64,000 bases of DNA from Amoebophrya sp. A120 (GCA_905178155.1 CAJINV010000012.1:62001-126000); one strand, 5' to 3'. Shown: positions 444 through 63,501, counted from the first letter of the stretch. Numbers and translations are program-made. The notes: a model not told the origin generated them from the letters alone.

Positions 444-3400
444 TCACATCTTCGACTTGTGAAACAAAATTTTCCGTTCTTTCTCCCCAAGCGATGAAGT
501 GTAGTTTACACTATCCTTACTGTCCCTCAGTTTCTGCATGTCCCGTGCCTCCTTCTCCATCACCTTCAGAGCCTGCACTACCGTATTGAGAGGAAAAATC
601 CCCCCTCCCCATATTGAAAGCGCTTTCGTCTGAAAATTTGTGATGCAGATTTGAGGTCACAAATCCTGTCTGTCTTGCAAGAAGGCAAAGCCAGAGAGTC
701 CGCCGCATTATGCCGGCGGTTTGTGATGCTGTTGGGCTTACAGAGCCGACATCTGTCAATGTCATGCTAATCCCCTCATCAAAACCTCTCGACCCAGGCT
801 TGGCATATGCCTGCAGTCCTCTCCAGCAAGACAGACCTGATTTGTGTACGCAAATCCAGCATCAGAAACTTCGTTTCGATATGGGGAGGGGGGATTTTTC
901 CCTTTGATATACCGCCGGTCGCTGTTTAATTTTCTCGTACCACGCGTCTGCGTAAATCAGGCCGCAATCTTTCAAAGACCTATTCTGCTTTTCAAACCGC
1001 TTCCAGGGCTTGACCCAGGGCCACGCCGCCCTATTATCTATAGGAAAAATATTAAACTCCTGTCGATCTTCACTTGTGTAAGTAGCTGCTGTTTTTATTT
1101 GGTGGAGTGATAGCATATGCTGTTGAGTTCTTGTACATCATCTCTGCATTACAGAGCACATGCACAAAGCCTCTAGTGTACAAGTTAGTAGCACGGAACG
1201 ACGATGAAAACGTACACACATGAAGCCGAGAGGTGGACTTCGTGGTGGTCGTCTGGCATGACAAGTTGTGATAAACTTGTTTTAGTACATACTGGTCCTG
1301 CAACATCTTCACAGACTTACACTAATACAGAGTTCTTTTTTTCTTGCATACATATCCGCGATGGTATACTTGTCGCCGGCGAGAAAACCGGACGTCCTTA
1401 TGCACTGCAAAAGTATAATCGTACTCGTAGTGGTGGCGATAAATATGCGAAGACAAATCTCCTTCTCTAGGTAAATCCGCATGACAGGTTCCATTTGCTA
1501 TACTGAGGAAATTTGTCATGCGATGTATACGTAGGTGTAGCGCGATGCTTTTGCAGGGCATATTCCTCTCGACCCGCTTATCCAGAACGTGAAGCAATAT
1601 CGCAAGAAAAAAGTGTTACAGTTACGCATTGCGTTGCAACACCGGCAACACAGATAACCTTTCTCATGCAGGAAGTGCTTGCGAGCCTCGTTTCCTACGT
1701 ATTTTACCTTATGATCTTCGCATCACAAGTTATGCCTGCCACACAGGGAAAATTTGTGTTGCAGAAACTCCAACAAATGTGTAACTGTAGCACTTTTTTC
1801 TCGTGATAAGCAAGCGGGAATACTCAGTTGTACGCGCACGCGCAAGGCCGTATTCTGTAATATTACTGCAAGCCGCAGCAGCAGCAGCAGCACGAAGGCG
1901 GGATGGATCTGTTTCTTTTGCCTCGCATGTTGGCTGTTCATCCCCGCCATCAGTTGTCCTGGGCGGTGGAGCCGCGGTCAGCTATGAAGTGCAAAAGTAT
2001 TGCACTCGTATAAATGCATTACAAATTTCCTCAGCATGAGAAATAAAATTTGTAATGCAGTTTTTCCTTTTTAAGAGCAAGATTTGTAATGCATGTTTGC
2101 GATCACTACGAGTACGATACTTTTGCACAGAATATCAGCTGTGCTTGTACGATCTTTGGCGCGTAGTACAAGTAGTGTGAGACATATTGAAAGAAAAAAC
2201 TGCTTCACTGTAACTTTGTTGTAATGCAGGAAATGCATCGCCGAAGTGTTTGTCTTGCGACACATGCAAGACAAGTGATTTTTACCCGTGTTTTCCCTTA
2301 GCAGCAACCTCGCATGGCAAGTTTTCTTTGTCATGTGTAAGAGCGAACTTGTAATGCGAAACTTGCAAAATCCTTACAGCGAAGCAGTTTTTTCGTACGA
2401 TAAGACACTCCCCGCCACCGGCCCGAGGTTGCTGTTCACCCAGAACAGCCACTCCAAGATGTCTTTCTCGAACTTGTTGGGGAAAAATACTCGGCACTCC
2501 TTTCGGAACCACCGCTTTGCTAGCCAGTACATAATCGCCATCACTGTGAAAAAGCGCTTCTTCCCCCAAACCACACTTGTCAGGCGTATTGGTATTTGTA
2601 TAGTAATAGTGCGCAGACTGCGCTGTGTCATGCGCGTTTCTGCATGCTCTCGGGGACTTCCACTTTTCCATGTTTTAGGCAGGGTCAAAAGCTAGGTCTG
2701 TGATGCGACTGGGACTGGACTAGCTACCTCCCAGCGCCGGAACAAGACACTTCATGCGCAACAGCGAAGACTTTTTGGCCTGTGTAGCTGCAAAACTAAC
2801 TGCCATTTTCTAGTTGATTCTGGGTTCATCTTGCTGGGATGGACGTCGACGTCGTTTTCACACAGGATAATCGCACCTGACTCGAACAGGGTCTCTTGCA
2901 CTTCGAAGTTGGACGAACTAGATGCGCCATGGTCCTCAACATCATCGACTGTGTTGAGCTGTAAACTTCTTGTACTTCTATCGTGGTCAGCCTCAGCACT
3001 ACGAATTACCTCCACCGCAGGCATTTTCCCGTTCGGGCTGATTCTCAGGAAGTCCTCCCCATATTGCTCCCCCCGCGCTAAATCCACCGAAATATGGTGA
3101 AGAAAAATGATGTCCCCATCGTCCCAAAGTTTATTGTTGTCATGCAAATCCTCACCCCTAAAATGTAGTTTTTCATGCCGCAACCCCATGAGGAGCATTT
3201 TGTGATGCTGTAGTTCAGAAATCATTTGTCGTGCTCGAATCAGGATAAAACTGCGATCGGTTTGTGATGCGGCTGCACTAGCTAAATAGGACTACTTCTA
3301 CTTACTCTCCTACGGGCCTAAACTTGTCACACGCGACAGCCAAAGCTTGTGGATTTGTGTAGCAGATCACTCTTCATCTGGACGTATGGGGTGGGGACAT

Positions 3401-3540
3401 AATTTCTCTATAGGATACGGAATCACATCGAAATCGATGTTTGCCTCGAGCAGCAAAATTGCGACTTTCCAGCCGTTGGGTGTGGGGCTGTAGTGCAAAC
3501 GGACTCTGAGGTTTCGCGTGGAGGAGTTCATCTTGGACAT
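444..3540 (-). CDS. Glutathione S-transferase, YfcG/YghU/Ure2-like (Nu class), ~337 aa, 9 exons
   Basis: Exons 3540-3418,3087-2870,2533-2403,2179-2135,1977-1809,1592-1563,1393-1351,1029-910,578-444 (1014 nt, in frame). They give HYSPTPNGWKVAILL..VDLARGEQ..ISPNGKMPA..LFESGAIMYWLA..LEWLFWVNSNLGP..LHVLDKR..FLAGDKYTIADMAAWPWV..WYEKIKQRPAV, which are GST N- and C-domain motifs. Confidence 0.9.
584..909. mobile_element. Introner family A (TIR TAT..GAAAAATCCCCCCTCCCCATAT), GST intron
   Basis: ~30-nt TIRs; DR taccg at 579-583 and 910-914. Confidence 0.92.
1035..1350. mobile_element. Degenerate introner, GST intron
   Basis: TAT..ATA ends, weak TIR; DR cctat/catat; removal gives TIADMAAWPW. Confidence 0.75.
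1399..1562. mobile_element. Introner family C (TIR TATnnnnTGCAAAAGTATCG), GST intron
   Basis: TIRs; DR gtcct/ttcct. Confidence 0.87.
1598..1808. mobile_element. Introner family I, GST intron
   Basis: TIR tatcgcaagaaaaaagtgttacagttac / rc tatcacgagaaaaaagtgctacagttac; DR agcaa. Confidence 0.9.
1983..2134. mobile_element. Introner family C, GST intron
   Basis: TIRs; DR tcagc. Confidence 0.9.
2185..2402. mobile_element. Introner family I-like, GST intron
   Basis: TIR gaaaaaactgcttc(a/g)ctgtaa; DR agaca. Confidence 0.9.
2539..2869. mobile_element. Degenerate introner (B-like), GST intron
   Basis: DR atcgc; removal gives ESGAIMYWLA. Confidence 0.8.
3093..3417. mobile_element. Introner family B-like, GST intron
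   Basis: TIR ..aaa(t/a)t(g/t)atgtcccca; DR cgaaa/cggaa; removal gives VIPVDLARGEQ. Confidence 0.83.
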
Positions 3541-5668: not shown

Positions 5669-8600
5669 TCAGTTCAAGACAATCGCGCGCTGCTCCCCCT
5701 CACCGGTGATGGCGGCCAGCGCTTCCTCGTTAGCCAGCGTGTCCTATGAGAGTGGACAACTTCCCCCCCCTCATTTGTATGGCATCTACAGCATTACGAA
5801 CACCAGTACAGTTGGACACTGTGTATGACAAGTTAAAAAACGCCGATTGTAGTACTGTTTGAATTTCCGGAATTTGTCATGCACGCGGTGCCACAAGGTA
5901 GCAACTGGATTTGGGTTTTTGCATGACAAATGAGGGAGAGGGGGAGTTGTGCACTGTCATATGTCCGCAATCGCCTGAGCCAGCCGGTCGGCGACGGTCG
6001 CGGGCGATGGCGGTGCTGGTGCAACTCCAGCTCCTGCACTGGGTCGTGCAAGAACATCTTCAACCTGCCCAGCCGCAGCCGGCAATCCAACGACGCGGTT
6101 GTCATCATCGTCACTCATCCCAAAAACAGCAGCCTCGGGGACTGAGCGAACCATGTCCGGGGTGGTGATCAACATGGGACCACTTCTGGCCATGTTGATC
6201 ATCTCCTGCTGCTGGTTGTGGTCGTGCTGAGTAGATGAAGAACTACCACCAGCACCTCCCAAGAACGGGGCAGCTGCTCCTGCAGGCTGACCCGCCGGTT
6301 GTTCGAAGCCCAGCTGATGAAGTTGAAACATGGAGGCCGCGGGGGGTGTATCCTGTGCAAAACTATCGCATTCGTAGTAATTGCATTCATGCATTACAAA
6401 TTTCTTTCTCAAGGTGAATCAGCATTACAAATTCAATTTCTAATGCTGGGCTAGTTTGTAATGCAATTTATAGTAGTACGATGATTTTGCATTGCATAGG
6501 GTGTAATGGGCGGCAAAAATGTGCTGGTCAACATCAATCCCACGCGCATCGGGTCCGTCCCCGTTCTAGCGTCGAACAGCAGGGGCAGTAAGCCCTGTTG
6601 CTTTCGTATGCATTGCAAACATGGCTGGGTGTTCACTGGACGACAAAACGCAACACAAACGCGTTTTTCTGCATCATCAAGCAAAAGATCGCACTACTTT
6701 TCATCTTCGTGTTGGTCATGCTAGTAGTACAACACAGATTTTACAGATATTACGCAAGACCAAAAGCAAGAATACGCGCTTCAATCTAAAAATCTTCCAG
6801 AAGATGACAACCCAGATCGATTATATTTGCAGTGCATATTCAAGTGGTCCACGCTAATCAACCCATTTCGGGCGAACCCGAGCAGTTGGCCCCGGGTCAG
6901 GTTCCGCTTTAAGTCGAATTTCAGGCCGAAGGGAAACATGTATGGGGGTAGGGTGAGCAAGTCGCTTTCCGCCGTGTTATTAGGGTCCAAAATTTCGTGA
7001 CTTCTCACAATCCGGAAATCAACGCGCCAGTTTTTCAGACTATCGTTGTTGAAGTCGGTACCCATCAGCATCTGGTCGAAGTTCCTCACTCTCGACACGT
7101 CAAAATGCGCGAGATTTTCGTCGAAGCCTGTGCACCGCGAAAACATGCCCTCCATAGACCGCACTTGGGTCGTTTTCCAGTCAGAGAGGGAAAAACTTGT
7201 GTCTTTAAACAAATAGTCCCAAACCTATCCACAAAAAAAAAGAGCCATCCCCATACATTTTTTGCATGACAAACACTGTGACTTTCTGCATGTTTTGCAT
7301 GAGACAAATTGGATTTGGGGATGGGTTTCTTTTTGTGGATAAGACCTTCGTGGTTTGCCGGATCCGTCTTGCGTGGGTCCGGATGACGTGGTTCTCGAAC
7401 TCTCGTCGCGTTGCCTCCGGCAGGTCGGCGAACTGCGCTGGTGATCCATCCGCGTTTTGCAAATTCAGGTGTTGAAGAAATCTTTCCGTTTCCAAGTGAA
7501 ACACCTTGTCCATCTCAAATTGCTCGGCGTGCGGCTGGTAGAACTGGCAAAACTCGCCGAACAGGTTCGAAAGGTCTCCATCGTTCACCTGAGAGACATC
7601 CCAGGTTTGCGGTGCCCCATATTGCTCCTCGATGTACGCTCGATTTCCGCTGTTTTCCTCGTAGTTGGTATGGAGCTGTCAGAATCTTGAAATCGACAAA
7701 GTAAAAGAAATAATTTGTTGTAAGTATGTAATGCATGAAATGCGACGCAGAGGGTGCCTCTATTGCAGGGGACGCAAGGGAGACAGATGTATAATCCTGG
7801 TACGGGTCGCCAAGAGTTGGCGTTGGGCTGCTAACTAGCATGACAGAAGGGACGACGAGCTCTTTTTCCCTAAACCGCATGACAGGTTCGCGCCCAGGAG
7901 GGGGAAAAATTTGTCACGTGCCGACTCCAGATGACTGTGGGTCTAAAACTATCAAACTGGCATCGATTTTAGTGTGTGCGACAAACTCTTTCAACTTTGT
8001 CAATTTCGATCCTGAAGACACTCCCATACTTGATCTGGCGGAAGTAATACGTGATCGCGCGGAGCAGCACCGTTTTGTCTTTCGGGAAGGGCTTGTTTGG
8101 GAGCTTCACGTGCTTATCAGATCTTTCCCACTCGAAGTTTCGGTTTTTCTTGCCCGTAGACGACGACGACGAGGACGAGAAGAGGCTCGTTTTAGCGAGA
8201 TTTTTCCGGCTCCGGTAGTCCAGGCCCCGGAGGATAGCAGCCTGGGCGGGTTCTGGAAGGGAATCCAGATGTTCCACTTGCGGTTGTTGTACTCTTTCAA
8301 GATCTTCCGGGTGCACGTGCAGGGGAGAAGAAGTACTTCTAGAACATGGAACTCCTCCTGCTCTACTACTGCGAGAAAATGACGTTGAACCCTTTTTCAA
8401 GATGCTCTTCACGCTCCCCGCTGCTGGCGCTGCGCTACTACTACCCACTTGTAGCTGTCCACCTGCAGTAGCAGAAGTTGTCGTATTTCCGTCCAGCATC
8501 CACGCTTCCTCGTCGCTGCTCGCTTCCTCGGCGATCGTGGGTAAAACGGGGGCCGCCCTTGGCGTGCGAATCTTTCCTCGAAAACCAAGATTATTCTTGG

Positions 8601-10482: not shown

Positions 10483-13400
10483 TCATCGCGGCGCTCTGCT
10501 TTCTTTCTTGCGGGCACGCCTGACCTTTTTCACCGCCAGGTGCCTGATCAGTTTTCGTTTTGCCTGCTCTTCCTCCTCATGTTTCTTCTTCACCGCTAAT
10601 GTGTCTGAGTCGTTATCAAGTCCGGCGGCTGGGCGCGATGGAGCATCACTGGCAATGGACACGACATGTCGATCTGAAACGTTGTCCCGAGCGTGGTCAT
10701 TTGCGACCCGTTTTTGAACGGGAGGATCTGCTGCTGCTGGAGTAGAAGTAATATTCGCGTCTACTTGTCCCGTATCTGATTGAGCAGTCTTGCAAAAGCG
10801 TCTCTTTCTCCTGGCCGGCGGCGGCGTGACATCGGCGTCCAGCTGACGAGGAGTGGGGCGTCGTACTCCCACCCTCCCCCTCGCAAGCATATTAATCGGG
10901 GTCACAGTTTTCTTTGCCCTTGGCGGCGCAGAACTTGAACTCTTCTTTCTGCGACGAGAAATAGCGTTGATCTTTTTCTCCTTGTTGAAGCCTTTTTTTC
11001 CCTTGGTGTCAATAATACGAATATCTTCAGTTTTCTCATCAAGTCGGCGCGGCAGTTGTTTTCGTGGGCTTCTCTGTTGAGCAGGTCTGGTGACCAGCTG
11101 CGCGACACGCTTGGATTTGCAGCTTGTTTTTGCGGCTCGTCTTGCTGCTCCTTGTCCACCATCTCCCGCGGCCGTGTGAGTTGCAAGAAAGCGAAGAACC
11201 TGTGCTAAGCCTGACGGACTTACGGACGACGTGCCGTTGCCTGGAGATGGATGCCAGTTAAACACATTTTCCGCTAGCCGTTTCAACCGTGCCGCTGCAT
11301 CTTCATTCTTCCGCGTGGTCTCTACCCCTGCAGCGCCAGCGGTTGCGGCCCCGAACAAAGCTTCCAGCAGCAACCTCATTTTCCGGCGGCCTTTGATCTC
11401 GTCGGACAAGACAACGGGCGAAGATGATGTCGTCTGCCCCCTGGTGGTGTTGCCATCAAACCCTGTAGCAGCTGTTGTTTCATCATCATCACTCCTTCCG
11501 CGTCGAGACCCGCCCATGTTGGAAGTAGCAGCGTCCTCCTCCTCGATGTCAACGAGATGACCCAACTCTTTGTAAAAGTCTTTTGCCAGCTGCAGTGCCG
11601 CCGTTGAGGGGGCCTCATGTTGATAAATCACCGCGCTCTGAATCTGGAACTGCGGGTATTACAATGAAGAATGCCCCCACCCCCCAATGTGCAAAAGTTT
11701 GTCATGCAAAGTTTCCAAATGAAAGCTTTTTGTGTTTGTCTTGCATGAAAGGATTGCGAGCCTTTCTGATGCAGAATCTAGGTGCGCAATGTGCCTTGTG
11801 CGTAACAGATCCGGCTGCTGTTGGGCCCCTTCGCAACACAAATTCGAGCTATTCAGCATGGAAAATTTGTGATGCTAAGATATGCAAGAAGGGAAATTTT
11901 TCTATTGGAAAGGTTTGCAATACAAATGCTGCCAAGTGTGGGGTGGGGGCACTTTTCACTGTAATAGCGGGCGCACTTGCTGCAAGCGGCGGATGAAATG
12001 GTCATTGTGGGATCCTTATGAAATGCAAAAGCATCGTACTAGTATAAATCGCATGACAAACTTCCTCAGCATGAGAAATAAAATTTGTATTACGGATTTA
12101 ACTTGAGAAAGAAATTTGTAATGCATAACTGCGATTACTACGAGTACGATACTTTTGCACAGGATAATCCTCCCATAATGAAGACTTTCGGCAGTTGTAG
12201 CTTTTTGCGCGTCGACGGCCCGGACGAAGACACCGACACAGGGGATGTTGACGATGAGGAGGTTTTTAATACTTGTGGATTTATTCTACTTCCCAGCACA
12301 CGACTGTCCTCGTCCTCGTGCCCCTTCACTGACTGGTCGTTCTCCCACTTTTTCACCAAGCGTCGGATCCAGACCAGATTACGGACGGTCACCAAATGTG
12401 GCAACGTCTCGCTGTGAAACAGGGCAGGGTTAGCATCAAATGCTGCTCGTGCCGGCGGGGAGTTACGCAACTGGTTCTCCAAAGCCAGTTCGGGGTCGTG
12501 GACGTGCTCGTCCACCGCGACCTGGGCGTCCACCTGCTCCACCATCGTCTGGTGCTTATTCTCACCGGCGACTGTGCCTTCCAAACCTTTTTGTTTTTCC
12601 CCAGCAGTGTTGACAGGCTCCTCAGAAGTTGGGCCTAACATCTTCTCGGCATTTTTAGGTTCGTCCTTCTGCTCTATCCTTGTCCGATGTTCAAATGGTG
12701 ACTCCTTCCACTTCCCCGGCGCGGGGCCCCATGGTGTCGCCTGTCCAGCACGGATGTAGTGGCGGACATCGAAGCTCTATGGGGGTGCCAGGCTGGTCGA
12801 AGTTCGCAAAATGCATACGTAAATCACTTACATTTCGTACATAATATATGATGTGCACAAAGTGCGAGCTGCGCGAGGTATACTCTCCTGCCTTGCAGGG
12901 AAGGGAAAAATGACAGACCGCCAGCTTGGTCAGTCAACAAGGTCAACATGGGATAAACGGCTGGCGAAGAGGACAATGGCAGGAGCTGCGTCCGTCTTTG
13001 CGCTAAACCGCACGGAAAATCAATGTCCGGACGTTGCCAACCTTTGATGTCATGCGGTGCTTCGAAATTGGGATCCCAAGAAGAGCTGGTACGTATTTTT
13101 AAACGTACGCGCCGAGGATTGATTTTGATTTTCATTTTTACATTTTCTGAGTGACTACACATTTACTCGACGATATCCACCCCTGATACCTTCATAAGTT
13201 CATTTGGTTTTCCAGAAATTTCATCTCGAGCAGTTCCTGCTCTTCCATGCGCAATCCTGCTCCCGTCCGCTCGTCGCTTCTGCTGCCCCACATCCTCGGA
13301 AAGAAGTCAACAACCTTTTTGTACATATTCGCTGCACAGGTGGCTCGGATGACGTCCACTGCTATTCGTAACAGCTCTTGCCGAACAGGCAGCTCTTCCG

Positions 13401-47181: not shown

Positions 47182-47417
47182 TATGAAATGCAAAAGTGTC
47201 TGGGTCTGGAAGATTCTGAGACTTGTCACGCATGTTTTGCATGAGCCTGGATGTCTGTAATGCACGACCTAGCATCACAGATTTTTAGAGGGCTCCCTGA
47301 CGCCTACTCCGCATGACAAACGCCCTCCCCGCGTCGCACAAACTAGACTCCTCTTGCTGGTCATGCAAAACAGATATTTTTACAATCCAAAGTTAGCATC
47401 ACAAGTTTCAACCTCCC
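47182..47417. mobile_element. Truncated introner family D in a pseudogene fragment
   Basis: Left TIR and interior match 58133-58397; right TIR lost where the array unit begins. Confidence 0.8.
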
Positions 47418-49173: not shown

Positions 49174-49406
49174 TATGAATTTGAATGTGCACAACCCCCC
49201 CTCACCCTCATTTGTCATGCAAAATGCGGAATCGAGGCTGTGCCGCTTCGCACTGTTTGCATGACAAGTTCTGGCAGCGGCAGCCCAAATAGCTGCACTA
49301 CAATCCTGTACAAATTTGTCATGCAAAACTGGCATTCTCGCTGGCGCTTGTACTATTGCCGTTCATGCTATACAAGCTAGGGCGAGGGGAGTTGTGCACT
49401 ACCATA
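49174..49406. mobile_element. Introner family G (downstream of the predicted stop)
   Basis: TIRs; DR gaaac/ggaac. Confidence 0.82.
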
Positions 49407-49458: not shown

Positions 49459-51756
49459 TCACCTACGAGGCGGGGATCCGGGTCGACCCGTCGAGCGGGG
49501 CAATGCCGATGCCAGCCGCGCCGACGGACGATACTGCAATAATGGTTCTTCATCACTGCGAGGGAAACTGCTATCCCCGCGAGGGAAACTGCTATCCGCC
49601 CCACCAACATCCCCGCGAGGGAAACGAGTTGCGCCAGATGGAGAGGGCTCCTGCTGACCCCGACGACCCTCCGAAGGACAGCGAGCAGCCGGCGCAGCGG
49701 AGCGAGCAGAGTGACCCCTACCAACATGCGGAGTCCGTCGAGCCGAGGCCTCCAGCGACTTGGTTGCGTAGGAAGTTATCATAGAAGCAGTCATGGACGA
49801 CTTGAGCTGGAAGTAGTCCTCGATGGACATCTTTCTTACAATGAAAAATGCCCCCACGGCCCCGGAATTATGATGTAGATGTGCAGAGCTTTCTCATGCA
49901 TAAGGTTATTTCCAAATGAAGGACTTTTACTTTTTATCTAGTATGCATGAAAGGACTACTAGAAGCCTTTCTGATGCAGAGAATGTACTAGGTGCGGTGC
50001 GCAAGGTATAACCTTTTGCATAACAGATCCGACAACTGCTGTTGGGCTCCTTTGCAACACAAATCTGAGCTATTCAGCATGGAAAACCTGTGATGCCGGA
50101 ACTATACGGGGTATGTTTCTATGTATTGGAAAGGTTTGCAATGCAAACGCTGCCAAGCTCTGGGGTGGGGGCGTTTTTCATTGTAATAATGTCCCGATAA
50201 TCCCCATAATTGAGTTCACGAAAATCAGCGAGAAATGTGTCACTAAGCCAGTGTGTCCGCCATGGGTTATTTTTCCCGGAACTTATCCAGTGCCAATATG
50301 TCTGGGTCTGGAAACTTGTGATGCTAAAATGTGCATCATCATCATCATGTAGTGGACACCCGCTCCCAGCGCCACAGGTCAAGGATCCCCTCCCCGGGGG
50401 GTGGGCGAGGAAGCACTTTCGGCGACCTCATCATACAAAAGCCGAGCGCTACCACGGCAAGTCGCCCCAATAAAAGTACGAACCAGTCGGGAGCTACCCA
50501 CCACACCTGATCAGTACAGCCCGGCCAGCTAGCCGAGCGCGACAGCCCAACATACAGAACGATCCAGGACCCGACCCATTTTACCTGCATGATGAAAACA
50601 CTTCCGAATGCAGACCAGCATGACAACTTTTCGGAGCACTCTCTCATAGGCAGCCCACATGTCATGAGAAACTGCGTTTTTGCATGACAAAAATGGCTGC
50701 GGCTTTTGTCGGTTATGCAATACAGATTGAGATTTCCCAGGAATGTAGGGCTAGCATTACACGTCGCAACTTTCCAGACCCAGACATATTTGCATTTGAT
50801 AGAACGAGCTGCAACCCATCTGAGGCCATCCTGACGAAAAATCCCCCTCGGGGATTCGGTAGCGAAGCCGCCAACCGTGAACTGCAACTGCTCGTGCTCC
50901 TGGTAGTGGCGCCCGCCGTTGATTACCATCGTATGCAGTGCAGATATGTCTGGGCCTTGAAGAAGGATTCGAAATAGTGGCGCGAGTTGCGGATGATCAT
51001 ACAAACGGCTGCGCTGCATGACTGGCAAAAGGTGCTCACTTCTGGCCATGCTGAGAGTCGTATAATATATATTTCTCGTGCAGAACAATAGGGGGCATCA
51101 CGAAGGGACTGCAGAACCTGTGATGCTAGGCCCCGCATTCGTCTAGACCTCAGGGCCAGGGACCTTGGAAAAACTGCGTGGCAAATAATCTCGGAATCTT
51201 CCAGACCCAGACACATGTGCAGTTGATACACGGCAGCAAGAAACAGTTTGTGCGCACGAGTCAAAAACGCAGGTGACCAGGAGGGTTCGAGCGGCATGGG
51301 TCCGGACTTGTACTCCAATGTAATGCCAAAAGCAGGACGCTGGGAAATGGTCCAGTAACCGTCGGGCGTCTGGCTGTCCTTATAGATGAACAGGCGATTG
51401 AGAGCAAAAAAGTAAAGCCAGGGTGTTTGATGATTTTTTGCCCAAGAGAGCAGGTCCTCCACCTGGTCTACCGCCAGCTGCGGGCTTGTATCAGGAGTTG
51501 CGCCGTACACCTGATAAGCATATTCAGCTACACGCGGGGGTCCTGACGCCCGCGCACGTTCTACAAGTTTGTCCCGAGCAAGTTCTACAAGTTTGTCCAC
51601 GAGTCCACGATAATCGGCTAGCTCTGGCGAGCCGGCGACGACCGAGTGATGTGGACCGGCCTTAGGGTTGCCAAATAACGACCCCAACGATGCGCTGACC
51701 ACTGCTACCGTCGACAAATGACAAACGAGAGACATCACAAAAAAACGCGCCGGCAT
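49459..51756 (-). CDS. Hypothetical secreted protein, ~370 aa, 4 exons
   Basis: Exons 51756-51229,50926-50802,50278-50189,49828-49459 are in frame; signal-like N-terminus; 3' end uncertain. Confidence 0.6.
49834..50188. mobile_element. Introner family H
   Basis: TIRs; DR atctt/atgtc; frame restored. Confidence 0.8.
50284..50801. mobile_element. Introner family D carrying a LINE 3' fragment
   Basis: TIRs; DR gaact/gaacg; matches uninterrupted copy 59164-59416. Confidence 0.9.
50337..50585 (-). mobile_element. 5'-truncated copy of the LINE (3' UTR end + (ATG)n tail)
   Basis: Near-identical to 26856-27106; TSD tgcat at 50332-50336 and 50586-50590. Confidence 0.92.
50932..51228. mobile_element. 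Introner family D (diverged interior)
   Basis: TIRs; DR catcg/cacgg. Confidence 0.82.
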
Positions 51757-53346: not shown

Positions 53347-56057
53347 CTAGACCTGCGCGAAGATGCCTCTGCATGCGGACGGATAAGAGGACGACCCCTT
53401 CTGTATTCGCACCCCGTTCTGGTATTTCACAGCCACCTCCTGTCCTGGCTTGCCCTCTATTCCATCGCCGTCTTGCTGGCCCCGCGCCCACGTCCCGTCA
53501 TACACATGCCCGTCGGGCCTGCAGTTTGTAAAACGGACCAGGAAGTACTTAGCGTTACAATTCTGAGATCAAAGCACACTGCTTGTCGTGGTTCCAAAAC
53601 GAAAAATGCCCGTAATGAACCCTCTAAAAATGAAAATGAAGAGCACACGACCACGCATATTAGAGTGAATATGAGGACGACGCCGGCCCTCGTTCCTCGC
53701 ACTACTTACCTTGTGATCATAGGTTAGTACTACACGACGCATGATGAAACTGCAAAAAGTAAAGGCTGTATTATACCATCGCATCTTGCCGCGCCCATGT
53801 CGGTGGTTCTCCAGGAAGTTGCCCTCGTTCGATATGCGAGCAAAACTCATCTTGTTTAACTCGAATGCCCCAATCATGAACTTGTGTTGCACATATCGCT
53901 TCATGTTGGTGATCATACTCGTGGTGCCACTACCACACGGTAGAAGGTAGCAGTAGCTTCTTTCCTAACATAGGTATCACCAAATACGCTTGTTCCGCAT
54001 GACAAACATACATTTTATTTATTCAATTTTCATAGGAAGAAACTCGTCCGTTTTGCTTCATTTCGCTCACGTACATGCTCGCCCGTCATTCCACGTCTGC
54101 TATGAACTGCAAAAGTATCGTACTAGTAGTAACCAGCCATGCTCCGGCTGCCGCCGGAGCGCAAGGCTGTTGGGCCGGGGCAAGGCTGTTTGCCGCTCGG
54201 ACCACAACCCCACGGGCCTAGTAGGCACAACGAAACGCACTGGATTCCTGCCGTCGATTTGCGCCGCGCCAAGCCGCAGGACCACTTGCGCGCCTCCCGC
54301 GCCTGTGGGCGCTCTGCGCAGGGAGCAGCTGCAAAAAACGCCGGGGGCGAACAGAAGCCGCATGGCGGGAGAGGGTGGCGCGGGAGGGTGGCGCGAGAGG
54401 GGTGCGCGAGAGGGTGGCGCGAGAGGGTGGCGCGAGAGGGTGCGCGAGAGGGTGGCACGGAAAGGCGCCGAACAAAACAAGTCCGCGAATGGCCTGCAGT
54501 GCGAAATATGGGCACTACCATGCGGATTCGCGCCCGCTTCTTTGTGCTTTTGCCCTCTCGCAGACCTCTCGCAGACCCTCTTTTTGGCCTCTTTTGGGGG
54601 TCCCCGCTAATAATCCGGCTATACTCGCGGGTAGAGGTCGACAGAGGTGGCCGAGAGGTGGCCAAGAGGGTCCGCGAGAGGTCGCCCCTTATTCGCAGCA
54701 CCTCTCTCCACCTCTGTCGACCTCTCGCGCCCCCTCTTTTTGACCTCTCTGCGCCCTCTGTGCCACTTAGGCGGCGCCTAAGGGTGGGCGCTTACTGCGG
54801 GCCTTATTCGCGCACCCTCTCGCGGACCCTCTCGAACGGGGTCCCGCGCCACCTCTCCACCTCTGTCGACCTCTTTTCTACCTCTGTCGACCTCTTTTTT
54901 ACCTCTCGGCCACCTCTCTGAGACCCTCTGTCTACCTCTTTTTTCGCATGAATATAATGTATAGTGATTGCAATACAAATTAGCTCAGCATGACAAATGG
55001 AATTTGTCATGCTGTTTTACCTTGAGAACGAGCTTTGTAATGCATAAATGCAATTACTACGAGTACGATACTTTTGCACAGGATATCTGCTTCCCCACGC
55101 CGATTTCTCCAGGGAAAAAATCACTTTTTGTGAGCAAAAACAATAAGATGCATATTCGTTTTTTTGTATGTGCGCCGAGGAAGCTCTTCTATGATGATAG
55201 AGGACATGCTGGCTCGAATATCGTGCATGACAAACAAACGGCTCAATGTAGAAGTGCTTGATGTAAAGTTATTTTTTGCCTCTGGATAGATGCTGCATGG
55301 AGTTGAAGAATGTGCCGTCGTACGTTGATTTCAGGCTCTTGTAGACACCTATAGTATAATTATGTTGTTGTTGGCTTTGTTTGCAGGTACACATCATTTC
55401 ATGATCATGTGCTGAAGCAGCGCAGCTAGCAGTTTCATTTTCATCATCACCAGCATCAACAAGTTCGCGCTTCAAAAAAGTAAGTACTTCACGCCGCTCT
55501 ACTGCACCAGCTGGCCTTCTTCAAGCATGACACAAGCATTTATTTCCAGCTTTCAGCTATACCTCTCCCTTGTATGATGTCGTTTTGGAAGTCGCCCTCG
55601 TATTGGCTTCCGTCCTCCCAAACGTACTGACCCCTCCCGTGCTTCATGCCGTTGACATACTCGCCCACGTAGACAGATTTATCCTCGAACCACACTTCGC
55701 GGCCTTACTACAGTGAAAAATGCCCCCACCCCCAAAGTTGCAAAAAATTATTGTGATGCGAAGTTTCCAAATGAAAACCTTTTGCCATGCATGAAAGGAG
55801 TATGAATCTTTCTGATGCAGAGTCTAGGCGTGTATCGCATCGTTTGCATGACAAGTGCCACTCTTGCTGGGGTCTTTTGCAATACAAATTTTTGCTATTC
55901 ACGATTAGAAACCTGTGATGCTGATAGATGCAAGAGGGCAGATGTTTCATTTGGAAAGGTTTGCAATACAAATGCTCCCAAGTTCGGGGGTGGGGGCATT
56001 TTTCATTGTAATAGGCCTCTCCCATGCTTCTTGTCCTGCATCCACTGTCCTTCATAC
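53347..56057 (-). CDS. MORN-repeat protein (5' end not determined)
   Basis: Spliced YEGQWMQDKKHGRGREVW..YVGEYVNGMKHGRGQYVWEDGSQYEGDFQNDIIQGRGVY..YDGTFFNSMQHGVGKQTWNDGRAYEGNFLENHRHGRGKMRWPDGHVYDGTWARGQQDGDG; 4 introners + 2 canonical introns. Confidence 0.85.
53519..53776 (-). other. Canonical GT-AG intron
   Basis: GTATAA...CTGCAG; gives RWPDGHVY. Confidence 0.78.
53833..54073. mobile_element. Degenerate introner
   Basis: TIR tatgcgagcaaaa / rc tacgtgagcgaaa; DR eroded (ttcga/catgc); MORN frame restored. Confidence 0.72.
54101..55085. mobile_element. Introner family C expanded by a ~830-bp GC-rich insert
   Basis: TIRs; DR tctgc; insert ~54131-54962. Confidence 0.87.
55106..55288. mobile_element. 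Degenerate introner
   Basis: TIR tctccagggaaaaaatcacttt / rc tatccagaggcaaaaaataacttt; MORN frame restored. Confidence 0.7.
55349..55562 (-). other. Canonical GT-AG intron
   Basis: GTATAG...CTATAG; gives QGRGVYK. Confidence 0.78.
55706..56013. mobile_element. Introner family H
   Basis: TIRs; DR ggcct. Confidence 0.9.
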
Positions 56058-56793: not shown

Positions 56794-59700
56794 CTAGACT
56801 TTCACCAAAGCTAAGTAACCGCCCTTCCTCAGGTACTCTTCTTGCTTTGCGGCGGGGGTTTGCTTTTGCTTCTCCCGTTCCAGCCAGGGGCTGCTAAACT
56901 CCAAATCGACCGCCCAACTCATCAGCAACCGGGCCCATCTATGAAGGCGTCAGGATCGAAATCAACAAAGTCGAAAAAATCAGGAAGGCAGATCATAGTC
57001 CTGAAAAGGGTTGCGAGTTGGGCTGCTGACTAGCATGACATAAGGGAGCCGAGCTCTTTGGCCCTAAACTACCGCATGACAGATTCGCTTCGAGAACGGG
57101 GAAAGTCTACAAGAACTGTCCCGCGCCGACTACAAACTGCAGGTCTAACTGGCATCGATTTTGTGCATCACATTTTTTTCGATTTTGTCGATTTCGAACC
57201 TGACACCCCCATACCACCCGCTGCGTCCGTAGTCTCGGCCGGCGTTGAAGTAAACCGTGTCGGAAGTCGTCTCTTCCAGCCATCCGCAACTGTCGATGCA
57301 CGCCGGCCCGAGAAAAAATTTCCCGAATTTTTTCGTGTGGCAGTGGATCAGCGCCATCGTTTGGACGTCCGCGAAGGGGTTCAGCGCATCGCCGTACCGT
57401 CCCAACCCCGCGTGCTCGATGGAGGAGTAGGAAAACCACATGTCATATCCACTGCAAAAAGCATCGCACTCTTAGTAATTGCATTTATACATTACAAATT
57501 TCTTTCTCAAGACAAATCAGCATTACAAATAATTCAATTTGTAATGCTGGGCTAATTTGTAATGCAGTTTATACTAGTGCGATGCTTTTGCAGTTCATAT
57601 GTCAAAATCGAAAGACACATCGCTCGTCAGTAGCTCGTGGAAAAACAAAAACCGCCATCGCTTGTGGGGGTATCGGGGTTGTATCGACGTGCTTTTCTTC
57701 TCGTCGAAGACTCCGTCTAGCTCGTCCGGATGCCCCTCCACGGGTGGTTATGCATTACAAAAGCATCATTACTAGTAGTAGAAATCGCATTACAAATAAT
57801 TCGGTCAGCATGTTGACACATGGAATTTTTTGTCATGCTGTTTTACGTTGGGGTAGAGATAATTTGTAATGCATGACTGCGATTATAATTGCTACGAGAA
57901 GTGCGATACAATTTTTGCACAGGATAGTGGTTTATCCTGTGCAAAAGTATCGCACTCGTACAAATGCTAATGCAAGTCTTGCATTACAAATCTTGTTTCC
58001 ACGGCAAATCTGCATTACAAATTTTATTTCTCATGCTGAGGAAATTTGTAATGCATTTATACGAATACGATACTTTTGCACAGGATAGTGGTTTCCGGTA
58101 GTCAACCGTGGTTACGATCGCGGTGGGGAAGCTATCACATGCAAAAGTGTCTGGGTCTGGAGTGTTGCCGAGTTTGTCATGCATACTTTGCATGACCCAG
58201 GATGTCTGTAATGCACGCCCTAGCATCACAGATTTTTAGATGGCTTCCTGATGCCTACTCCGCATGACAAATGCTCTCCCGCCCGCGTAGCACCAACTAG
58301 ACTCCTCTTGCTGGTCATGCAATACAGATTTTTTTAGAGTCCAAGGTTAGCATCACAAGTTCCAACCTTCCAGACCCAGACATTATTGCATTTGATAGAA
58401 GCGGTACAGCAGCAAAATCTCCATCCAGGGCTGCTCACTGCCCAGAACCGCGATTTTCAAATTAATTTCCTGCTGGCCCAGCAACACCGTTTTGTCGTTC
58501 TCGTTGTGCCAGGTCTATCAAAATGAGAAATCCCCCCGCCCCATATCAAAACGGAAATTTGTGATGCTGCTTCGTGGCCACAAATCAGCTTTGTATTGCA
58601 GAGAGGAATGGCGGCCAGATCCCCAGGCTAGGTAGGGGCTTATGTGTCTAGTTGTTCAGCATGGCAAACGGCTCCCCTTTAGGCCTAACAGCATGACAAA
58701 CCGCCTCCATAATGGGGCGAAAGCTTCTGCCCTTGTCTTCTTGCAAAACAGATGTGATTTGTGACCTCAAATCCGCAACACAAATTTTTGGACACATACC
58801 TTTTCAATGTGGGGAGGGGGGATTTTTCCTCTCAGTAAGGTCTTGTTCGAATTCGCGAAAAACGTATCGCGGTTCCGCATGATCGCCGCGTCAAGAATGA
58901 AGACCGTGTCGTCTTGGTAACTGGAAACGGTTTCGTTTACGAAATGGAGATATGCATTGCAGACGTATCGCGCTAGTATAAATTGCATTACAAATCGACT
59001 TACCATTACAAATTGAATTTCTATTGCGGATTTGCCTTCAGAAAAATATTTGTAAATGCATAAACGCAATTAAAACGAGTGCGATACTTTTGCACTGCAT
59101 AGGAGAAACACCAAATCGCTGTCCGTCCAGAGATTCAGTGCGTAGTCGCGCTTGAGCGCTCTCTATGAGATGCAAATGTGTCTGGGTCTGGAAACTTGTG
59201 ATGCTAAAATGTGCACGATGAAAACGCTTCCGAATGCAGTCCGGCTTGACAACTTCCCAAAACGCTTTCTGATATGCAATCCGCATGAGAAACTGTGTTT
59301 TTGCATGACAAAAGAGGCTGCGACTTTTGTTGGTTATGCAATGCAGATTTTCTAGGTATGGAAAGCTAGCATTACAAGCTCCAACCTTCCAGACCCAGAC
59401 ATTTTTGCAATGCATACTCTCTTTTCCAAGATGTTGCGGTAAAGTTTCTGCTTGGTCTCCAGCGCAATCCGTCGGTTTTCCGACAACCCAGCGTGTCATG
59501 AATTGCAAAAGTATCGTTATCGTATTCCTATTCGGATAAATGCATTACAAATTTCCTCAGCACGAGAAATGAAATTTGTAATGCTGATTTACCTTAAGAG
59601 ATGAATGAGAAAGATTCGTAATGCATGACTGCAATACGAGTGCGATACTTTTGCACAGGATACGTGTTGCATCCACCCGAAAGGATTGCGGAGCAGCAGT

Positions 59701-62700
59701 TTTCCGAAGGTCTGCGCGTTCCATTTGTGCGACAGCTCTTCCTGGAGTGGCGGAGCGATGGGACGATTGTGGTCTTCGAATTGGGTAGTTTCCTCGTTGG
59801 CGAAAGAGCCGGGTTTGTAGTCCTCTTGCATCTGGTCGCCTTTCTCCTCGTCATTGTTCTCTAAATAAGAAGGTTTTGACGTACTAGATTCTACTCCATC
59901 ATCATGAACATGATCCCCCACGACCTCTCGTGCCCAGCTGTCGTTACTGGACTTCTGCATGTAGAACGCGTTCTTCTTTACCGCTTTTCCGTACAGCAAA
60001 AGATCGCGTCGGTAAATTTCTGGGATCCTCAAGGGCGGGGGCCACAGGTGCGACTCGGCCATGCGAAGCCCGGGGGACTGCTTCAACAGCTCGCACTTGG
60101 GGTAGACCAGTTTTTCGCTGATTTTTTCCATAATTTTCTCGTCTACTACTTGGTGGTGCTCTTGCAGTTGTTCCGCATTCGATCCTATCTCGGTAGAACT
60201 TGCTGTGCCGCCCTGCTGTAGTGGCTCTTTATCCGCCACAAGTTCCCGCTGATAGTAAACGATCTCCCGACTCTGCACCTTATTTCGGGCGATTTCCCCA
60301 CTGCAAACGTCCTCCCCGCACCCGATCCGCTGCAATGGTGCGAGTCTCTCGTAGTAGATCTTCGCTACATTGTCCATGAAATCCCCGATTTTGGACGCCA
60401 GGTGGGCGAATTCCTGTTGGATGCGGAAGAGTTTGGTGCGCAGTTCGAAGATGTTTTGCTTGTAGAACTTCGCTATAACAAACTCGTCGATGTACTCCAA
60501 CTCGTCTTCAATGGATTTCCGCAGCGAGGAGAGTAGTACAGCATTGCTGTCGTCACAGGGCGGGTCATCATGTTGTTCCTCGTGTTCTTGGCCCTTTTGC
60601 TGCTGTTCGCCATTCTGTAGTTCCTGTCCGGCATTGATTCGCAACCTTTGTTGTTGAACAAGAAGAACTTCCTGTACTTGCTTCTCCCGCCCCGCTACCA
60701 CGCTTTTCCTGAACTTCTGCAAATGTTGCCAGTGATGGTTGAAGTAGGTGGTGTGCTCGATTAAAGGGAGAAGGAAGGAATGAAGCGTGATCGGCTGTCG
60801 GTGAAATGACTGCTGCTCGTCCTTGTAATCCGTCCCTTCGTAGTTATTCAAGTTCTCGACACCCCCGAGCACGATCCTCGTCGGCGCCAAATTCTCAATT
60901 TCCCCCGCAACGTCCTCACCGGTCAGCAAGGTTGTGTTGGTAGTCGGCTCGAAAAATGCGTCCGCGCGCCGTAACGCCTGCCGGATCTGCAGCGCCAGGT
61001 CTTCGTGGGTCGAGAGAATTTTCAGGAGTTTGAACATTTCTTTTGGGTGGGTGTAGCGACCGGTCGAAAAATCATGCGTCTTCGCTGGTGGACGTCGACC
61101 AAGAACTTCTTGTGTGCCGCCGCTTGATGTTCTTGCCACCGGCCCAACGACCTTCGCAAATTCTTCGTCCGTCTTTTGCATCTGCTGCTCCAGCGCTGTC
61201 GCGTCGAATGGAAGGTGAGCGTCGTGTAAAGATGCAGCCGTAGCATGATCATCTCCTTCGTTATCAGAATTTCTATCGGTCGCATTCACCACGCCGAGCG
61301 CTTTCCCCAGGTCAATCTTCGAGGCCACCCTTCCGGTCCTGTCCCGCCCGAGCCCGTCCGCGTCTGGTGCAGCGGCTGCATCGTTATCAAGTGTAAAAAT
61401 GTCTGGGTCTGGAAGAATGCGCGATTTGTCATGCTTCTCTGGCATGAGACTTAAACCTGTCATGCAGGTTACCCAAGATCCCCAATTTCCTGTCATGCAA
61501 AGACGCAGTTTGTCATGCAGAATAGGCAACACCTAGAAGCTCAGAAACTTGTCATGCTGAGCCAGCACTTATGGCCTCCTCATGATACGCCACCCAGCAT
61601 CACAAGTTTCCAGACCTAGACATTTTTACATTTGATAATCGTCTTGGAATAGCAAAGCGGCGTACTGAAAAATGTTCATCATTTCTCCGCTTTGCTCAGC
61701 CTTCTCCAGCATCTCCTCTTTCTCCCATATCAAATGCAAAAGTGTCTGGGTCTGCAAGATTGCCAGGTTTGTCATGCACATTTTGCATGACTCCTGATGT
61801 CTGTGATGCATGCCCTAGCATCACAGATTTTGTGAGGGCTTCCTGATGCCTATACCGAATGACAAATGCTCCTTCCGTGTACGCAAAACTTGGACTCTCT
61901 TTGCTGCTCATGCAATACAGATTTTTTTAGAATCCAAAATCAGCATGACAAGTTGGATTCTTCCAGACCCAGACAGTTTTGCAGTTGATATCCCAGGTGT
62001 GAGCCCGGTAGTCGTGAATCAATGTCTGGATGTTCATCCTGTCCAGTTTCGACAGTGATAGAGTCGTGCCGGAAGCTGTTGTACTAGAGGACTCTTTGTT
62101 CGAGCTCGACGTGCCCGCTTGGTCCTCCTCGTTTGTGCTTCTGGAGGACAATACGTCAGGACTTGCATGATCCGTTCCGGTTTGAAGAACTGAGTCTGTG
62201 GTGCCTCCACCTGCGTCAATCCTACTTGTTCCCCCTTTCACCCCCAAAACCCGACGATCTGGGTACAGCAGCTCCACTAATGGCATCAAAATTCTCCGCA
62301 GGATATTCTGGTACGTCTCACACGCGAACCTCGCCACGTCCCACAAATTCGGTTTCGCGGCATGCACCGCTTCATCTACGTTCGACATTTTCTCAATGCC
62401 AAAAATGCTGCCGTCGGTATTCTCCGAGCGGAGGCAGGCCTGGTTCAATTTCAGCCCGATGTTGACTTTCTTGCCTGATGAAGTAGATGATGAGCCAGAT
62501 GATGGGTTTTTTGATGACTCATGATCTCCTTGACTTCCTACTTCTCCTGGTGCTGTTGTCATGTGAGATTCCTGGTCAACATCTTCGTGCTGCTCCACTC
62601 CACCTGCGTCCTCAGATGTAGTTCTGGTTTCTGATGGGAGGAGGTTGTCGATCTGTCCATCAAAAAAGGCGTCGTCATCGCTGTCACCTACAAGAAGTTC

Positions 62701-63501
62701 CGCCATTCCCAGCTTTCCCAAGCAGTAGCTGAGTTCTATCCACTGCAAAAGTGTCTGGGTCTGGAAGAATCCAACTTGTCATGCTGATTTTGGATTCTAA
62801 AAAAATCTGTATTGCATGAGCAGCAAAGAGAGTCCAAGTTTTGCTACACGTCGGAAAGAGCATTTTCCATGCGGTATAGGCATCAGGAAGCCCTCACACA
62901 ATCTGTGATGCTAGGGCATGCATCACAGACATCATGAGTCATCCAAAATGTGCATGACAAACCTGGCAATCTTCCAGAGGACCCAGACACTTTTACATTT
63001 GATAAGTTCCGCGGTTTCGCAATCTATGGTCTTCGTGTACAGGGGTGTGTCCCAGCAGCACCGGTTGAAATTCAGAGGTGAAGATGTCATGCTGGAACCG
63101 CTAGAAGTACTACTGCCCGGATTATCGAAACAAACGTCGTTTGCGTTCGGACCCTCTACACAGCAATTTTCGTAGTTCAAATGGACAGCCCAGGGGTCGG
63201 TGAAGCAGAAAAACTCATCCCGGTAGAAGGTTAACTGGCCGGAAGGCTGGGCGAGGGCGAAGAAGAAGATCATGATGTTGCTGACGGTCAAAATTGTCGC
63301 TGCGAGCAGGGATAGAACCAGCGGAAAGGGACGACAGCGACCCGCGCTTCTCGTGCTGGTCGTCCGGAATAGGATTACTGCCAGATGAGTAGTTGAGGGT
63401 TTGGTGGAGGTTCCGCGTCCGGAACAAAATAAAACCCCATTTCCTCGTGGTCCGCCTCTACTCCGCCTTCGGTGCCGCATGTGTTGCAGTCGCGGCGCCA
63501 T
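56794..63501 (-). CDS. Large membrane-anchored/secreted protein with C-terminal DUF268 (methyltransferase-like) domain, ~1314 aa, 12 exons
   Basis: Exons 63501-63005,62731-61991,61722-61638,61379-59663,59491-59417,59158-59102,58945-58838,58510-58398,58127-58088,57743-57600,57440-57214,56934-56794 are in frame. IAVLGSEQPWME..TTVDY..FDMWFSYSSIEHAGLGRYGDALNPFAD..FFLGP..VYFNAGRDYG is the DUF268 signature; 3' end uncertain. Confidence 0.82.
56940..57213. mobile_element. Introner family E
   Basis: TIRs; DR ccatc/ccacc. Confidence 0.87.
57446..57599. mobile_element. Introner family C
   Basis: TIRs; DR tgtca. Confidence 0.9.
57749..57926. mobile_element. Introner family C (twin, element 1)
   Basis: TIRs; DR gtggt. 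Confidence 0.88.
57933..58087. mobile_element. Introner family C (twin, element 2)
   Basis: TIRs; flanked by gtggtt on both sides. Confidence 0.88.
58133..58397. mobile_element. Introner family D
   Basis: TIRs; DR gaagc. Confidence 0.92.
58516..58837. mobile_element. Introner family A
   Basis: TIRs (5' end TAC on minus); DR aggtc. Confidence 0.9.
58951..59101. mobile_element. Introner family C
   Basis: TIRs; DR ggaga. Confidence 0.9.
59164..59416. mobile_element. Introner family D
   Basis: TIRs; DR ctctc. Confidence 0.92.
59497..59662. mobile_element. Introner family C
   Basis: TIRs (left end cat); DR cgtgt. Confidence 0.88.
61385..61637. mobile_element. Introner family D
   Basis: TIRs; DR atcgt. 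Confidence 0.9.
61728..61990. mobile_element. Introner family D
   Basis: TIRs; DR tccca. Confidence 0.92.
62737..63004. mobile_element. Introner family D, inverted near-copy of 61728-61990
   Basis: TIRs; DR agttc. Confidence 0.92.

Follow-up and report, generated by a model that had tools for sequence, protein, structure and literature searches.

Introners in the window

The window is a stretch of 64,000 nucleotides from Amoebophrya sp. A120 (GCA_905178155.1 CAJINV010000012.1:62001-126000), which holds 45 short, non-coding elements together with the RPS19e gene, a LINE-like retroelement (long interspersed nuclear element) and a block of long repeats. The elements are Amoebophrya sp. A120-type introners, described by Farhat et al. 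(2021, PMC7789003) as repeated non-canonical introns of many families, mostly 110-330 nt long, with short direct repeats and inverted repeats that consist of TAT, seven variable nucleotides and at least three A. Inverted repeats, direct repeats, family repetition and non-canonical removal were all matched by the elements in the window. We report here a motif shared by these introners and the regular spacing of its copies.

The elements were called from terminal inverted repeats (TIRs) and target-site duplications (TSDs), independently of the motif, and about a dozen were added or corrected by eye. They start with TAT, end with ATA, are flanked by 5-bp direct repeats and fall into nine families (Table 1). 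The 5-bp duplication was exact in 28 of the 45 copies and both ends were intact in 38, and no target-site preference was evident at the insertion sites. The first-pass annotation had described the families as having unrelated TIRs; this is correct for TIR positions of about 15-30 only, which differ from family to family and show modest co-variation of one end with the other, whereas the outer 14 bp (TAT-N7-AAA) are common to all families. In a family-weighted logo of 11 families T, A and T each reached.99 at positions 1-3, a value that is partly circular as the finder demanded TAT..ATA, and A reached.70-.87 at positions 11-14. A 14-mer also present in family D was borne by 76 of 114 family C ends. 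Positions 4-10 vary freely, often even from one end of a copy to the other, and the occurrence of the same variants in families C and D suggests end exchange or common ancestry of the ends. Some family C and D ends also score as a motif site centred at position 7, whereas most ends of other families do not. In a putative DNA sequencing run (X5) the summed contig depth over elements was far above that of unique DNA, and contigs spanned element boundaries.

Further copies came from a metagenome scan with the family D pattern, which returned at least 153 stretches, 80 of them with full flanks. The merged set comprised 136 sequences (465,859 bp) with 329 elements, compared with one false positive on shuffled sequence; the query held one motif copy, which biases the first site of family D but not of the other families. 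An exact flush 5-bp repeat was present in 266 of the 329 related copies and a flush 6-bp repeat in none, with a finder that scored 5-bp repeats and is biased to this length; a single 6-bp case was seen in the window. The related copies resemble the window families at about 70-86% and have no long unique sequence in common with the window. Given that the LINE 3' end in the related loci is 98.9% identical to that of the window, these loci derive from the same or a very close species and not from an independent lineage. The 374 copies (window and related) formed 12 clusters of at least two copies, three of them absent from the window, and 17 singletons; the copy at 47182, whose right end is truncated, was left out of the alignments. 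Conservation and spacing were analysed in the 18 subfamilies with at least four copies, with 37 of 55 clusters excluded as smaller.

A shared motif is concentrated in introners

The strict motif, GCATNACAAA, was scanned on both strands of the window and gave 67 matches, 33 on the plus and 34 on the minus strand. Of these, 62 were located within the elements, which make up 10,918 bp or 17% of the window (5.68 per kb), and five in the 52,950 bp outside them (0.094 per kb), an enrichment of about 60-fold. Dinucleotide shuffles of the 45 elements contained on average 0.4 and at most 3 strict matches. Similarly, the related loci (466 kb) after masking with hidden Markov models (HMMs) had 598 strict matches in 122 kb of element DNA compared with 34 in 344 kb outside.

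For degenerate sites we used an oriented position weight matrix (PWM) with the consensus YW-GCA(T/A)(G/C/T)A(C/G)A-AA-Y, in place of an unconstrained expectation-maximisation model that fused both orientations to the palindrome TGYNWNRCA. This matrix found 212 sites in the window elements and 9.5 in shuffles, with at least two interior sites in 44/45 elements and both orientations in 39/45. The strict form was absent from 13/45 elements, so the initial statement that the motif saturates the introners is true only of the degenerate form. That it recurs several times per element and in both orientations was confirmed, and ten of the 12 example coordinates given for it were exact; 2026 should read 2016 (or 2034) and 5874 should read 5873.

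The motif core is conserved beyond its surroundings

In 18/18 subfamilies the motif core differed less from the consensus than the spacers did. Core mismatch was 0.02-0.10 (0.04, 0.02 and 0.05 at the offsets G, C and A), compared with 0.16-0.21 by base in spacers and 0.22 at the degenerate position, and none of 200 permuted-PWM controls reached the observed core conservation. With the motifs kept, consensuses of different groups aligned with z of about 2-18. When the motifs and the outer 14 nt were masked most cross-group z values fell below 5, with a residual 5-7 in a few pairs, while true relatives mostly scored 8-39. Given that the cross-family similarity was mostly lost on masking, simple descent is not the explanation. 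The first-pass idea of a common cis-code thus stands, since the motif is neither as frequent in background as in introners nor shared by families that align end to end with the motif no more conserved than its flanks. Together these comparisons indicate that the shared motif is under selection.

Changes in the core were skewed to terminal branches (369:107, compared with 2708:1315 in spacers; p = 4e-6). A trend over quartiles in the same branch analysis was disregarded, as binning by spacer rate biases it. With TSD mismatch as an age clock, the spacer excess of old over young copies was only 0.004.

Motif copies are spaced on a helical lattice

Same-orientation pairs of sites at 31-33 bp numbered 28 and occurred in 16/18 subfamilies (null mean 3.3; best-window null maximum 16), while no opposite-orientation pair had this spacing. 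Minus-plus pairs were found at 14-15 and 44-48 bp and plus-minus pairs at 17-18 and 35-36 bp. Spacing relative to the termini, a check proposed on first pass, was also regular: the outermost site was located 37-38, 45-51 or 57-60 bp from the TAT end in 34/36 ends, and the first-site phase had an R of 0.70. When all pairs up to 120 bp were considered, the best period was 10.4 bp with an orientation offset of 4.2 bp, so that same-orientation pairs lie at whole turns and minus-to-plus pairs at whole turns plus about 4 bp. The mean cosine was 0.59 at this period and -0.01 at 11.0 bp, and 0/300 random layouts reached the score.

This result persisted when the 31-33 bp pairs were removed, when each homology group was represented by a single subfamily and when the null retained the 32-bp modules, and it was stable over six PWM thresholds and on dropping any group. 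With the lattice fixed, each of the ten homology groups had a positive score (0.26-0.89; group S contributes one pair). Among same-orientation pairs outside 31-33 bp, 55/87 lay within 2 bp of a whole turn compared with 33.5 expected. The window copies alone gave a period of 10.5 bp and held-out families absent from the window 10.6 bp. Within the spacers, SS dinucleotides were weakly in phase and WW dinucleotides in anti-phase (family-level R 0.52 and 0.42; six classes tested), and AA/TT showed no phasing (Rayleigh Z 1.3).

The families might all go back to a single ancestral element, or to a tandem array of 32-bp units, with motif and spacing as functionless leftovers. The gaps of 14-15 and 17-18 bp do sum to 32, the outer TIR is shared, identical 14-mers occur in families C and D, and a few cross-group z values of 5-7 remain after masking. 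However, the core exceeds the spacers 3-4-fold in conservation and has a position, +1, that varies freely, site order and orientation differ between groups, and the phasing survives the null that retains 32-bp modules. As the sole cause descent is largely refuted and we consider it very improbable; it may have seeded the array, but it cannot maintain it.

A preference for whole-turn length changes between sites was predicted, and this prediction failed in single copies, which had 82 changes of 4-7 nt compared with 24 of 9-12 nt, although the consensuses keep phase. Over all subfamily alignments the length changes between sites peaked at 1, 3 and 6 nt (72, 64 and 34 events), possibly a genome-wide slippage bias, and the difference between shared and private indels (p = 0.028) was confounded by recurrent 1-nt slips. 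Such phase-breaking single copies and the skew of core changes to terminal branches would fit selection acting on propagating copies.

A helical turn takes about 10.4-10.5 bp in B-form DNA and about 11 bp in A-form RNA. The 10.4-bp phasing therefore favours a protein that reads double-stranded DNA over a mark at the RNA level.

Ten elements are skipped in putative RNA

The splicing evidence comes from contigs of four runs (X1-X4) of one sample, classed as RNA by automated guess only. In these contigs all ten elements in 17000-26700 were skipped, each as the element plus exactly 5 nt, and families A and C were skipped in both orientations. Two of the ten interrupt the RPS19e gene, and the joined reading frame is open. 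A single register fits all ten joints (17379-26546), with a transcribed-strand intron N-TAT...ATA-NNNN; it was narrowed by three copies with imperfect duplications, has two limiting joints and assumes that one register applies throughout. No cut option among the ten has GT and AG together. In this register T always occupies position +2, as it does in a GT donor, and there is no fixed AG. Intron lengths had no frame bias (92/83/91).

Three motif copies at 19417..19497, just past the RPS19e stop codon, have the lattice-like spacings of 49 and 15 bp and lie outside any recognised element, flanked by a weak 13-bp inverted repeat. This cluster was retained in the contigs, and the motif alone therefore does not trigger splicing.

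Of the two mechanisms that the first-pass annotation offered, a DNA-level binding site is thus favoured by the phasing and a strand-symmetric RNA mark for an excision factor is disfavoured. If the motif acted on the pre-mRNA, inverted copies would zip the intron into a long hairpin, or the motif would be the site of a splicing factor replacing U1. The motif bases are predicted to pair more than the spacers in 33/36 folds (mean motif-motif pairing 0.47), most elements carry both orientations, and each of the ten skipped elements has at least three PWM sites. Against this, a mirror partner exists for only 26/95 sites, and in family B, with its sites in one orientation, the predicted motif-motif pairing is 0.05-0.11, yet the sites are conserved and the element is skipped. 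Skipping of families A and C in both orientations also speaks against a role in RNA, pairing would not fix one sequence across families, and the lattice score collapses at 11.0 bp; single-stranded RNA imposes no helical phase. We therefore regard action on the pre-mRNA as improbable.

A candidate binding site for a shared transposition protein

The explanation that we favour, with moderate confidence, is that the motif would be the lattice-arrayed double-stranded DNA binding site of one shared protein, which would assemble a transposition complex on otherwise non-homologous TIR introners. The reader would be a protein on B-form DNA. Several copies of it, keeping register with the element ends, would occupy one face of the helix and wrap the element or bridge its two ends. 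The bound protein would help to assemble a complex that would cleave at TAT and give insertions with a stagger of 5 bp, and selection would act mainly at the propagation of a copy. Splicing would rely on the terminal stem and the ends rather than on the motif, and the role of the motif is most likely in transposition rather than in splicing. As one option the first-pass annotation had proposed subterminal binding sites, but motif copies also occur further inside and span the whole element.

The catalytic partner would be a Ginger-like integrase-type transposase supplied in trans. Such an enzyme is likely because the A120 family 38 described by Gozashti et al. (2025, PMC12130899, Dataset S2), a Ginger-like family of about 808 bp, has the same 5-bp TSD and TA/TA termini in the same organism and open reading frames (ORFs) similar to Copia/Gypsy, that is to long terminal repeat (LTR) elements. 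The window elements are in contrast non-coding and too short for such an ORF, and family 38 is compared here by its description only. Within this explanation the binder would somewhat more probably be the DNA-binding domain of the transposase itself than a host cofactor, which retains a sizeable share. We also considered that one protein on the phased array both mobilises all families and marks them for co-transcriptional removal, a DNA-encoded intron definition that would replace U1 where most introns lack GT-AG; this extension is unlikely.

Several observations weigh against a shared transposition protein. Of 268 reading frames of at least 180 aa in the related loci, the 100 longest contained no transposase or integrase domain, and no autonomous element was present among three long TIR elements in the 466 kb of related loci and the window. 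Farhat et al. likewise report that no transposase was found in A120 (PMC7789003). The one shared transposase suggested on first pass is thus a candidate only. Single-family periods peaked at 10.1-10.7 bp in 7/12 cases and at 8.0, 8.1, 8.4, 9.9 and 11.8 bp in the other five, with a competing alias near 8; element lengths showed no phasing, and the in/out offset at element ends is about 2 bp, not 4. A 10.4-bp period is also a hallmark of nucleosomes (PMC3117857). The inner TIR was skewed to terminal branches even more strongly than the core (506:85), which could mean family-specific enzymes. The terminal-branch core/spacer ratios were well below 1 (mostly 0.2-0.5), leaving room for constraint after insertion, and parsimony tends to yield a terminal-branch skew for any conserved column. 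The predicted RNA pairing of the motif counts on the same side, as do its copies outside elements: element-free non-coding DNA held 19 matches compared with about 2 expected (about 9-fold) and putative coding DNA 10 compared with about 2 (about 5-fold). The initial statement that the motif is scarce in intergenic DNA is therefore true only in comparison with the elements. In element-free non-coding DNA it ranks among the most over-represented 9-mers and has no strand bias (6 sense, 5 antisense). These copies, like the coding ones, fit a host factor or unrecognised relics, and those in non-coding DNA may be either host sites or unmodelled relics.

The alternative suggested by these copies is a site for a sequence-specific chromatin or transcription factor of the host. 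Introners would accumulate phased arrays of it because the bound factor or a positioned nucleosome either helps the insert to be transcribed or brings in the splicing machinery from the DNA, so that selection would act on resident copies. It would account for the enrichment outside elements, where same-orientation pairs occur at 32, 34, 49 and 51 bp, for the three-site cluster after the RPS19e stop, for the weak SS/WW phasing of the spacers and for the constraint that persists on terminal branches, and U1 small nuclear RNA was not detected in Amoebophrya (PMC7789003). However, 3% of unmodelled relic DNA would account for the outside matches and the DNA outside does contain at least one element that the models missed (locus L050), the RPS19e cluster is not skipped, resident copies tolerate phase-breaking indels, and the first site is phased to the cleavage end. 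On balance a host factor is possible but rather unlikely.

The LINE-like element and the motif as a possible insertion target

The LINE-like retroelement of 7.2 kb has an (ATG)n 3' tail and one ORF of 1925 aa (27805-33582). The one database match in its support is a weak one, to RVT_1 (E 0.012), in a single part of the ORF when this was divided into three; the whole protein had no Pfam match at E 0.01 and no informative PDB match. The LINE label otherwise rests on the tail, the 5' truncations and putative endonuclease and reverse transcriptase motifs. In view of this divergence the ORF may represent a new non-LTR lineage.

The first-pass annotation had also named the motif as the LINE target. 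All three insertions of this LINE join at GCAT within introners, but only two of them at a motif site, the same one in family B (empty sisters score 14.7), whereas the third, at 50335, interrupts a sequence that is no motif site (2.1). Another insert, unrelated to this LINE and tailed by (CAT)n (L032, 632-1465), interrupts a motif site of a family D copy at CAT/GACAA, although it came from a search restricted to element interiors. Given GCAT, 44% of which lies in elements in the sampled DNA, three of three insertions in elements had a chance probability of p = 0.08, which is not significant. The tail is complementary to CAT, and trinucleotide tail-target priming at GCAT is a simpler reading of the insertion sites. 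As a target role cannot explain selection for the motif either, it is scarcely likely that the main role of the motif is to serve a sequence-specific LINE as its target.

Element coordinates and other features

Table 1. Introners, relics and the retroelement of the window. Signed numbers are motif centres from the PWM scan (nt from element start; the sign gives orientation). Family label I was introduced in this analysis.
Feature	Position	Strand	Sites and remarks
Family A introner	584..909		60-,92-,143-,246+,279+; exact 5-bp TSD
Decayed I-like relic	1079..1350		HMM only, E 2.6e-08; relaxed match at 1256
Family C introner	1399..1562		84+,120-
Family I introner	1598..1808		51+,69-,126+,162-
Family C introner	1983..2134		37+,55+,73-,107-
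Family I introner	2185..2402		40-,71-,85+,131+,170-
Decayed B-like relic	2540..2869		HMM only, E 5e-14
Family B introner	3093..3417		50-,113-,139-,175-,268-
Family G introner	5745..5961		36-,50+,82+,135-,180+
Family C introner	6349..6498		46+,77+,95-,113-
Degenerate D-like element	6607..6838		47+,112-
Short (S) introner	7226..7341		42+,75+
Family E introner	7669..8028		63-,95-,173+,212+
Family H introner	11657..11966		48-,85-,113-,180+,216-,264+
Family C introner	12017..12166		38+,56+,74-,105-
Decayed E-like relic	12823..13119		HMM only, E 3.5e-10
Degenerate element, D-type left end	14021..14389		135-,170+
Decayed E-like relic	14726..15106		HMM only, E 2.6e-08
Family D introner	17385..17649		47-,79-,94+,136+,190+,221+; skipped in contigs (270 nt)
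Family A introner, in RPS19e gene	19830..20153		no strict match, 6 PWM sites; skipped (329 nt)
Family E introner, in RPS19e gene	20221..20533		47-,148+,180+,215-,262+; skipped (318 nt)
Family A introner, orientation opposite to 19830	21998..22322		84-,150+,182+,234+,266+; skipped (330 nt)
Family D introner, left end GAT not TAT	23380..23641		7 sites; skipped (267 nt)
Family C introner	23716..23865		38+,56+,74-,105-; skipped (155 nt)
Family B introner	24735..25019		six sites in one orientation, 51,82,131,170,218,249 all +; skipped (290 nt)
Family D introner	25558..25820		47-,79-,94+,119-,133+,187+,218+; skipped (268 nt)
Family C introner	26063..26208		no strict match, 3 PWM sites; skipped (151 nt)
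Family C introner, reverse orientation	26383..26545		49+,80+,98-,122-; skipped (168 nt)
Family B introner split by LINE-like insertion	26632..34171		insertion at motif site, about 26848
LINE-like retroelement	26855..34099	-	ends approximate; splits family B copy at 26632
Degenerate family D element	34330..34584		motifs largely lost (1 interior site left); TSD intact
Family D element, right end truncated by tandem-repeat block	47182..47420		6 sites
Family G introner	49174..49406		44-,89+,148-
Family H introner	49834..50188		63-,141-,188+,224+,260-,308-
Family D introner with 5'-truncated LINE copy (about 50339-50590)	50284..50801		LINE at GCATGATGAAA, non-motif site (PWM 2.1)
Divergent family D introner	50932..51228		147-,192-,248+
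Family C introner with ~830-bp GC-rich insert (about 54134-54960)	54101..55085		4 sites
Family H introner	55706..56013		51-,82-,110-,144+,177+,213-,261+
Family E introner	56940..57213		97+,138+
Family C introner	57446..57599		47+,65+,78+,99-,117-
Family C introner	57749..57926		42+,87-,121-
Family C introner adjoining 57749 copy, opposite orientation, 6 nt between	57933..58087		6-bp flush repeat; 52+,83+,101-,119-
Family D introner	58133..58397		47-,79-,94+,133+,190+,221+
Family A introner	58516..58837		49-,81-,147+,179+,231+,263+
Family C introner	58951..59101		38+,56+,74-
Family D (second subfamily) introner	59164..59416		38-,123+,143+,178+,209+
Family C introner	59497..59662		49+,67+,85-,125-,138+
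Family D (second subfamily) introner	61385..61637		47-,78-,111-,131-,170-,216+
Family D introner	61728..61990		47-,79-,94+,133+,188+,219+
Family D introner, reverse orientation	62737..63004		45-,76-,172-,187+,219+

The GC-rich insert of about 830 bp at 54134-54960 has internal inverted repeats and is 77% identical to a stretch of the related locus L027 (about 778-1570); the two lie in different introner families and have no clear TSD. A block of long dispersed or tandem repeats at about 36400-49100 is almost motif-free and truncates the element at 47182. Within it lie a gap in the assembly at 40932-41063, a satellite of short units at about 42115-42470 and, at about 43100-43870, a repeat rich in GC. 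At about 3590-4500 a GC-rich non-coding stretch opens with short CACAGATGCC repeats and is possibly another mobile element. In the related loci, L024 (2-877) encodes a C-5 cytosine DNA methylase domain.

Outside Amoebophrya, the family D TIR had three matches in viral contigs, of which the two inspected were chance-like. A motif pair at 31-33 bp occurred in 29 viral and 117 prokaryotic stretches, and BLAST of 149 loci against the subfamily consensuses returned four short weak matches and no element, so these stretches were dismissed as chance or tandem repeats. In a Leptonemataceae contig, 14 matches to the pair pattern fall within 3 kb; they probably reflect a tandem repeat and show no introner similarity.

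Relation to known systems and significance

The identity of introners is already published, and the motif spacing lattice is a new result. The sections of Farhat et al. (PMC7789003) consulted describe only inverted-repeat and direct-repeat motifs; they mention neither a common internal motif nor phasing, and they argue that transposases do not generally mobilise the introners. In the present analysis the direct repeat proved to be a flush TSD of 5 bp, and a single splice register accounted for all ten joints. No report of the motif or its phasing was found in the open literature searched or in the text of the Farhat supplement, a search that left figures and two Gozashti supplementary files outside its scope, and the sections consulted of a paper on 5-hydroxymethyluracil (PMC11572971) contain nothing on a DNA motif.

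The arrangement resembles that of the Emigrant miniature inverted-repeat transposable element, in which the pogo-like transposase Lemi1, acting in trans, cooperatively binds internal repeats in both orientations and the arrangement of the repeats matters (Loot et al. 2006, PMC1636448). Both are short non-coding TIR elements with repeated internal motifs, and under the explanation favoured here the window elements would work likewise. Emigrant is however one family derived from an autonomous partner with subterminal repeats only, whereas the introners comprise at least ten non-homologous groups, have the motif phased across the whole element and are also introns; their membership of the Emigrant/Lemi1 kind is unproven. 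IS3EU/GingerRoot elements have TA..TA termini, a TSD of usually 6 bp and an expected integrase-like DDE transposase (Kojima and Bao 2023, PMC10045372). The window elements share the termini but have a 5-bp TSD, and are thus not assigned to this superfamily. A further analogy, and only that, is offered by TnsB of Tn7 and phage Mu, which are prokaryotic, autonomous and not introns; they have integrase-like enzymes, a 5-bp TSD and a need for several spaced binding sites, and enhancer-dependent recombination is sensitive to helical phase.

How about 2,000 dissimilar introner families of A120 spread without a detected transposase, and are spliced without U1, was left open by Farhat et al. (PMC7789003). 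A conserved motif on a helical lattice provides a concrete bait for pull-down and a signature for finding the autonomous element. The lattice also offers a way to separate a mobility code, the motif lattice, from a splicing code, the ends and the stem, and these findings suggest that new introner families can arise that keep only the end geometry and the phase.

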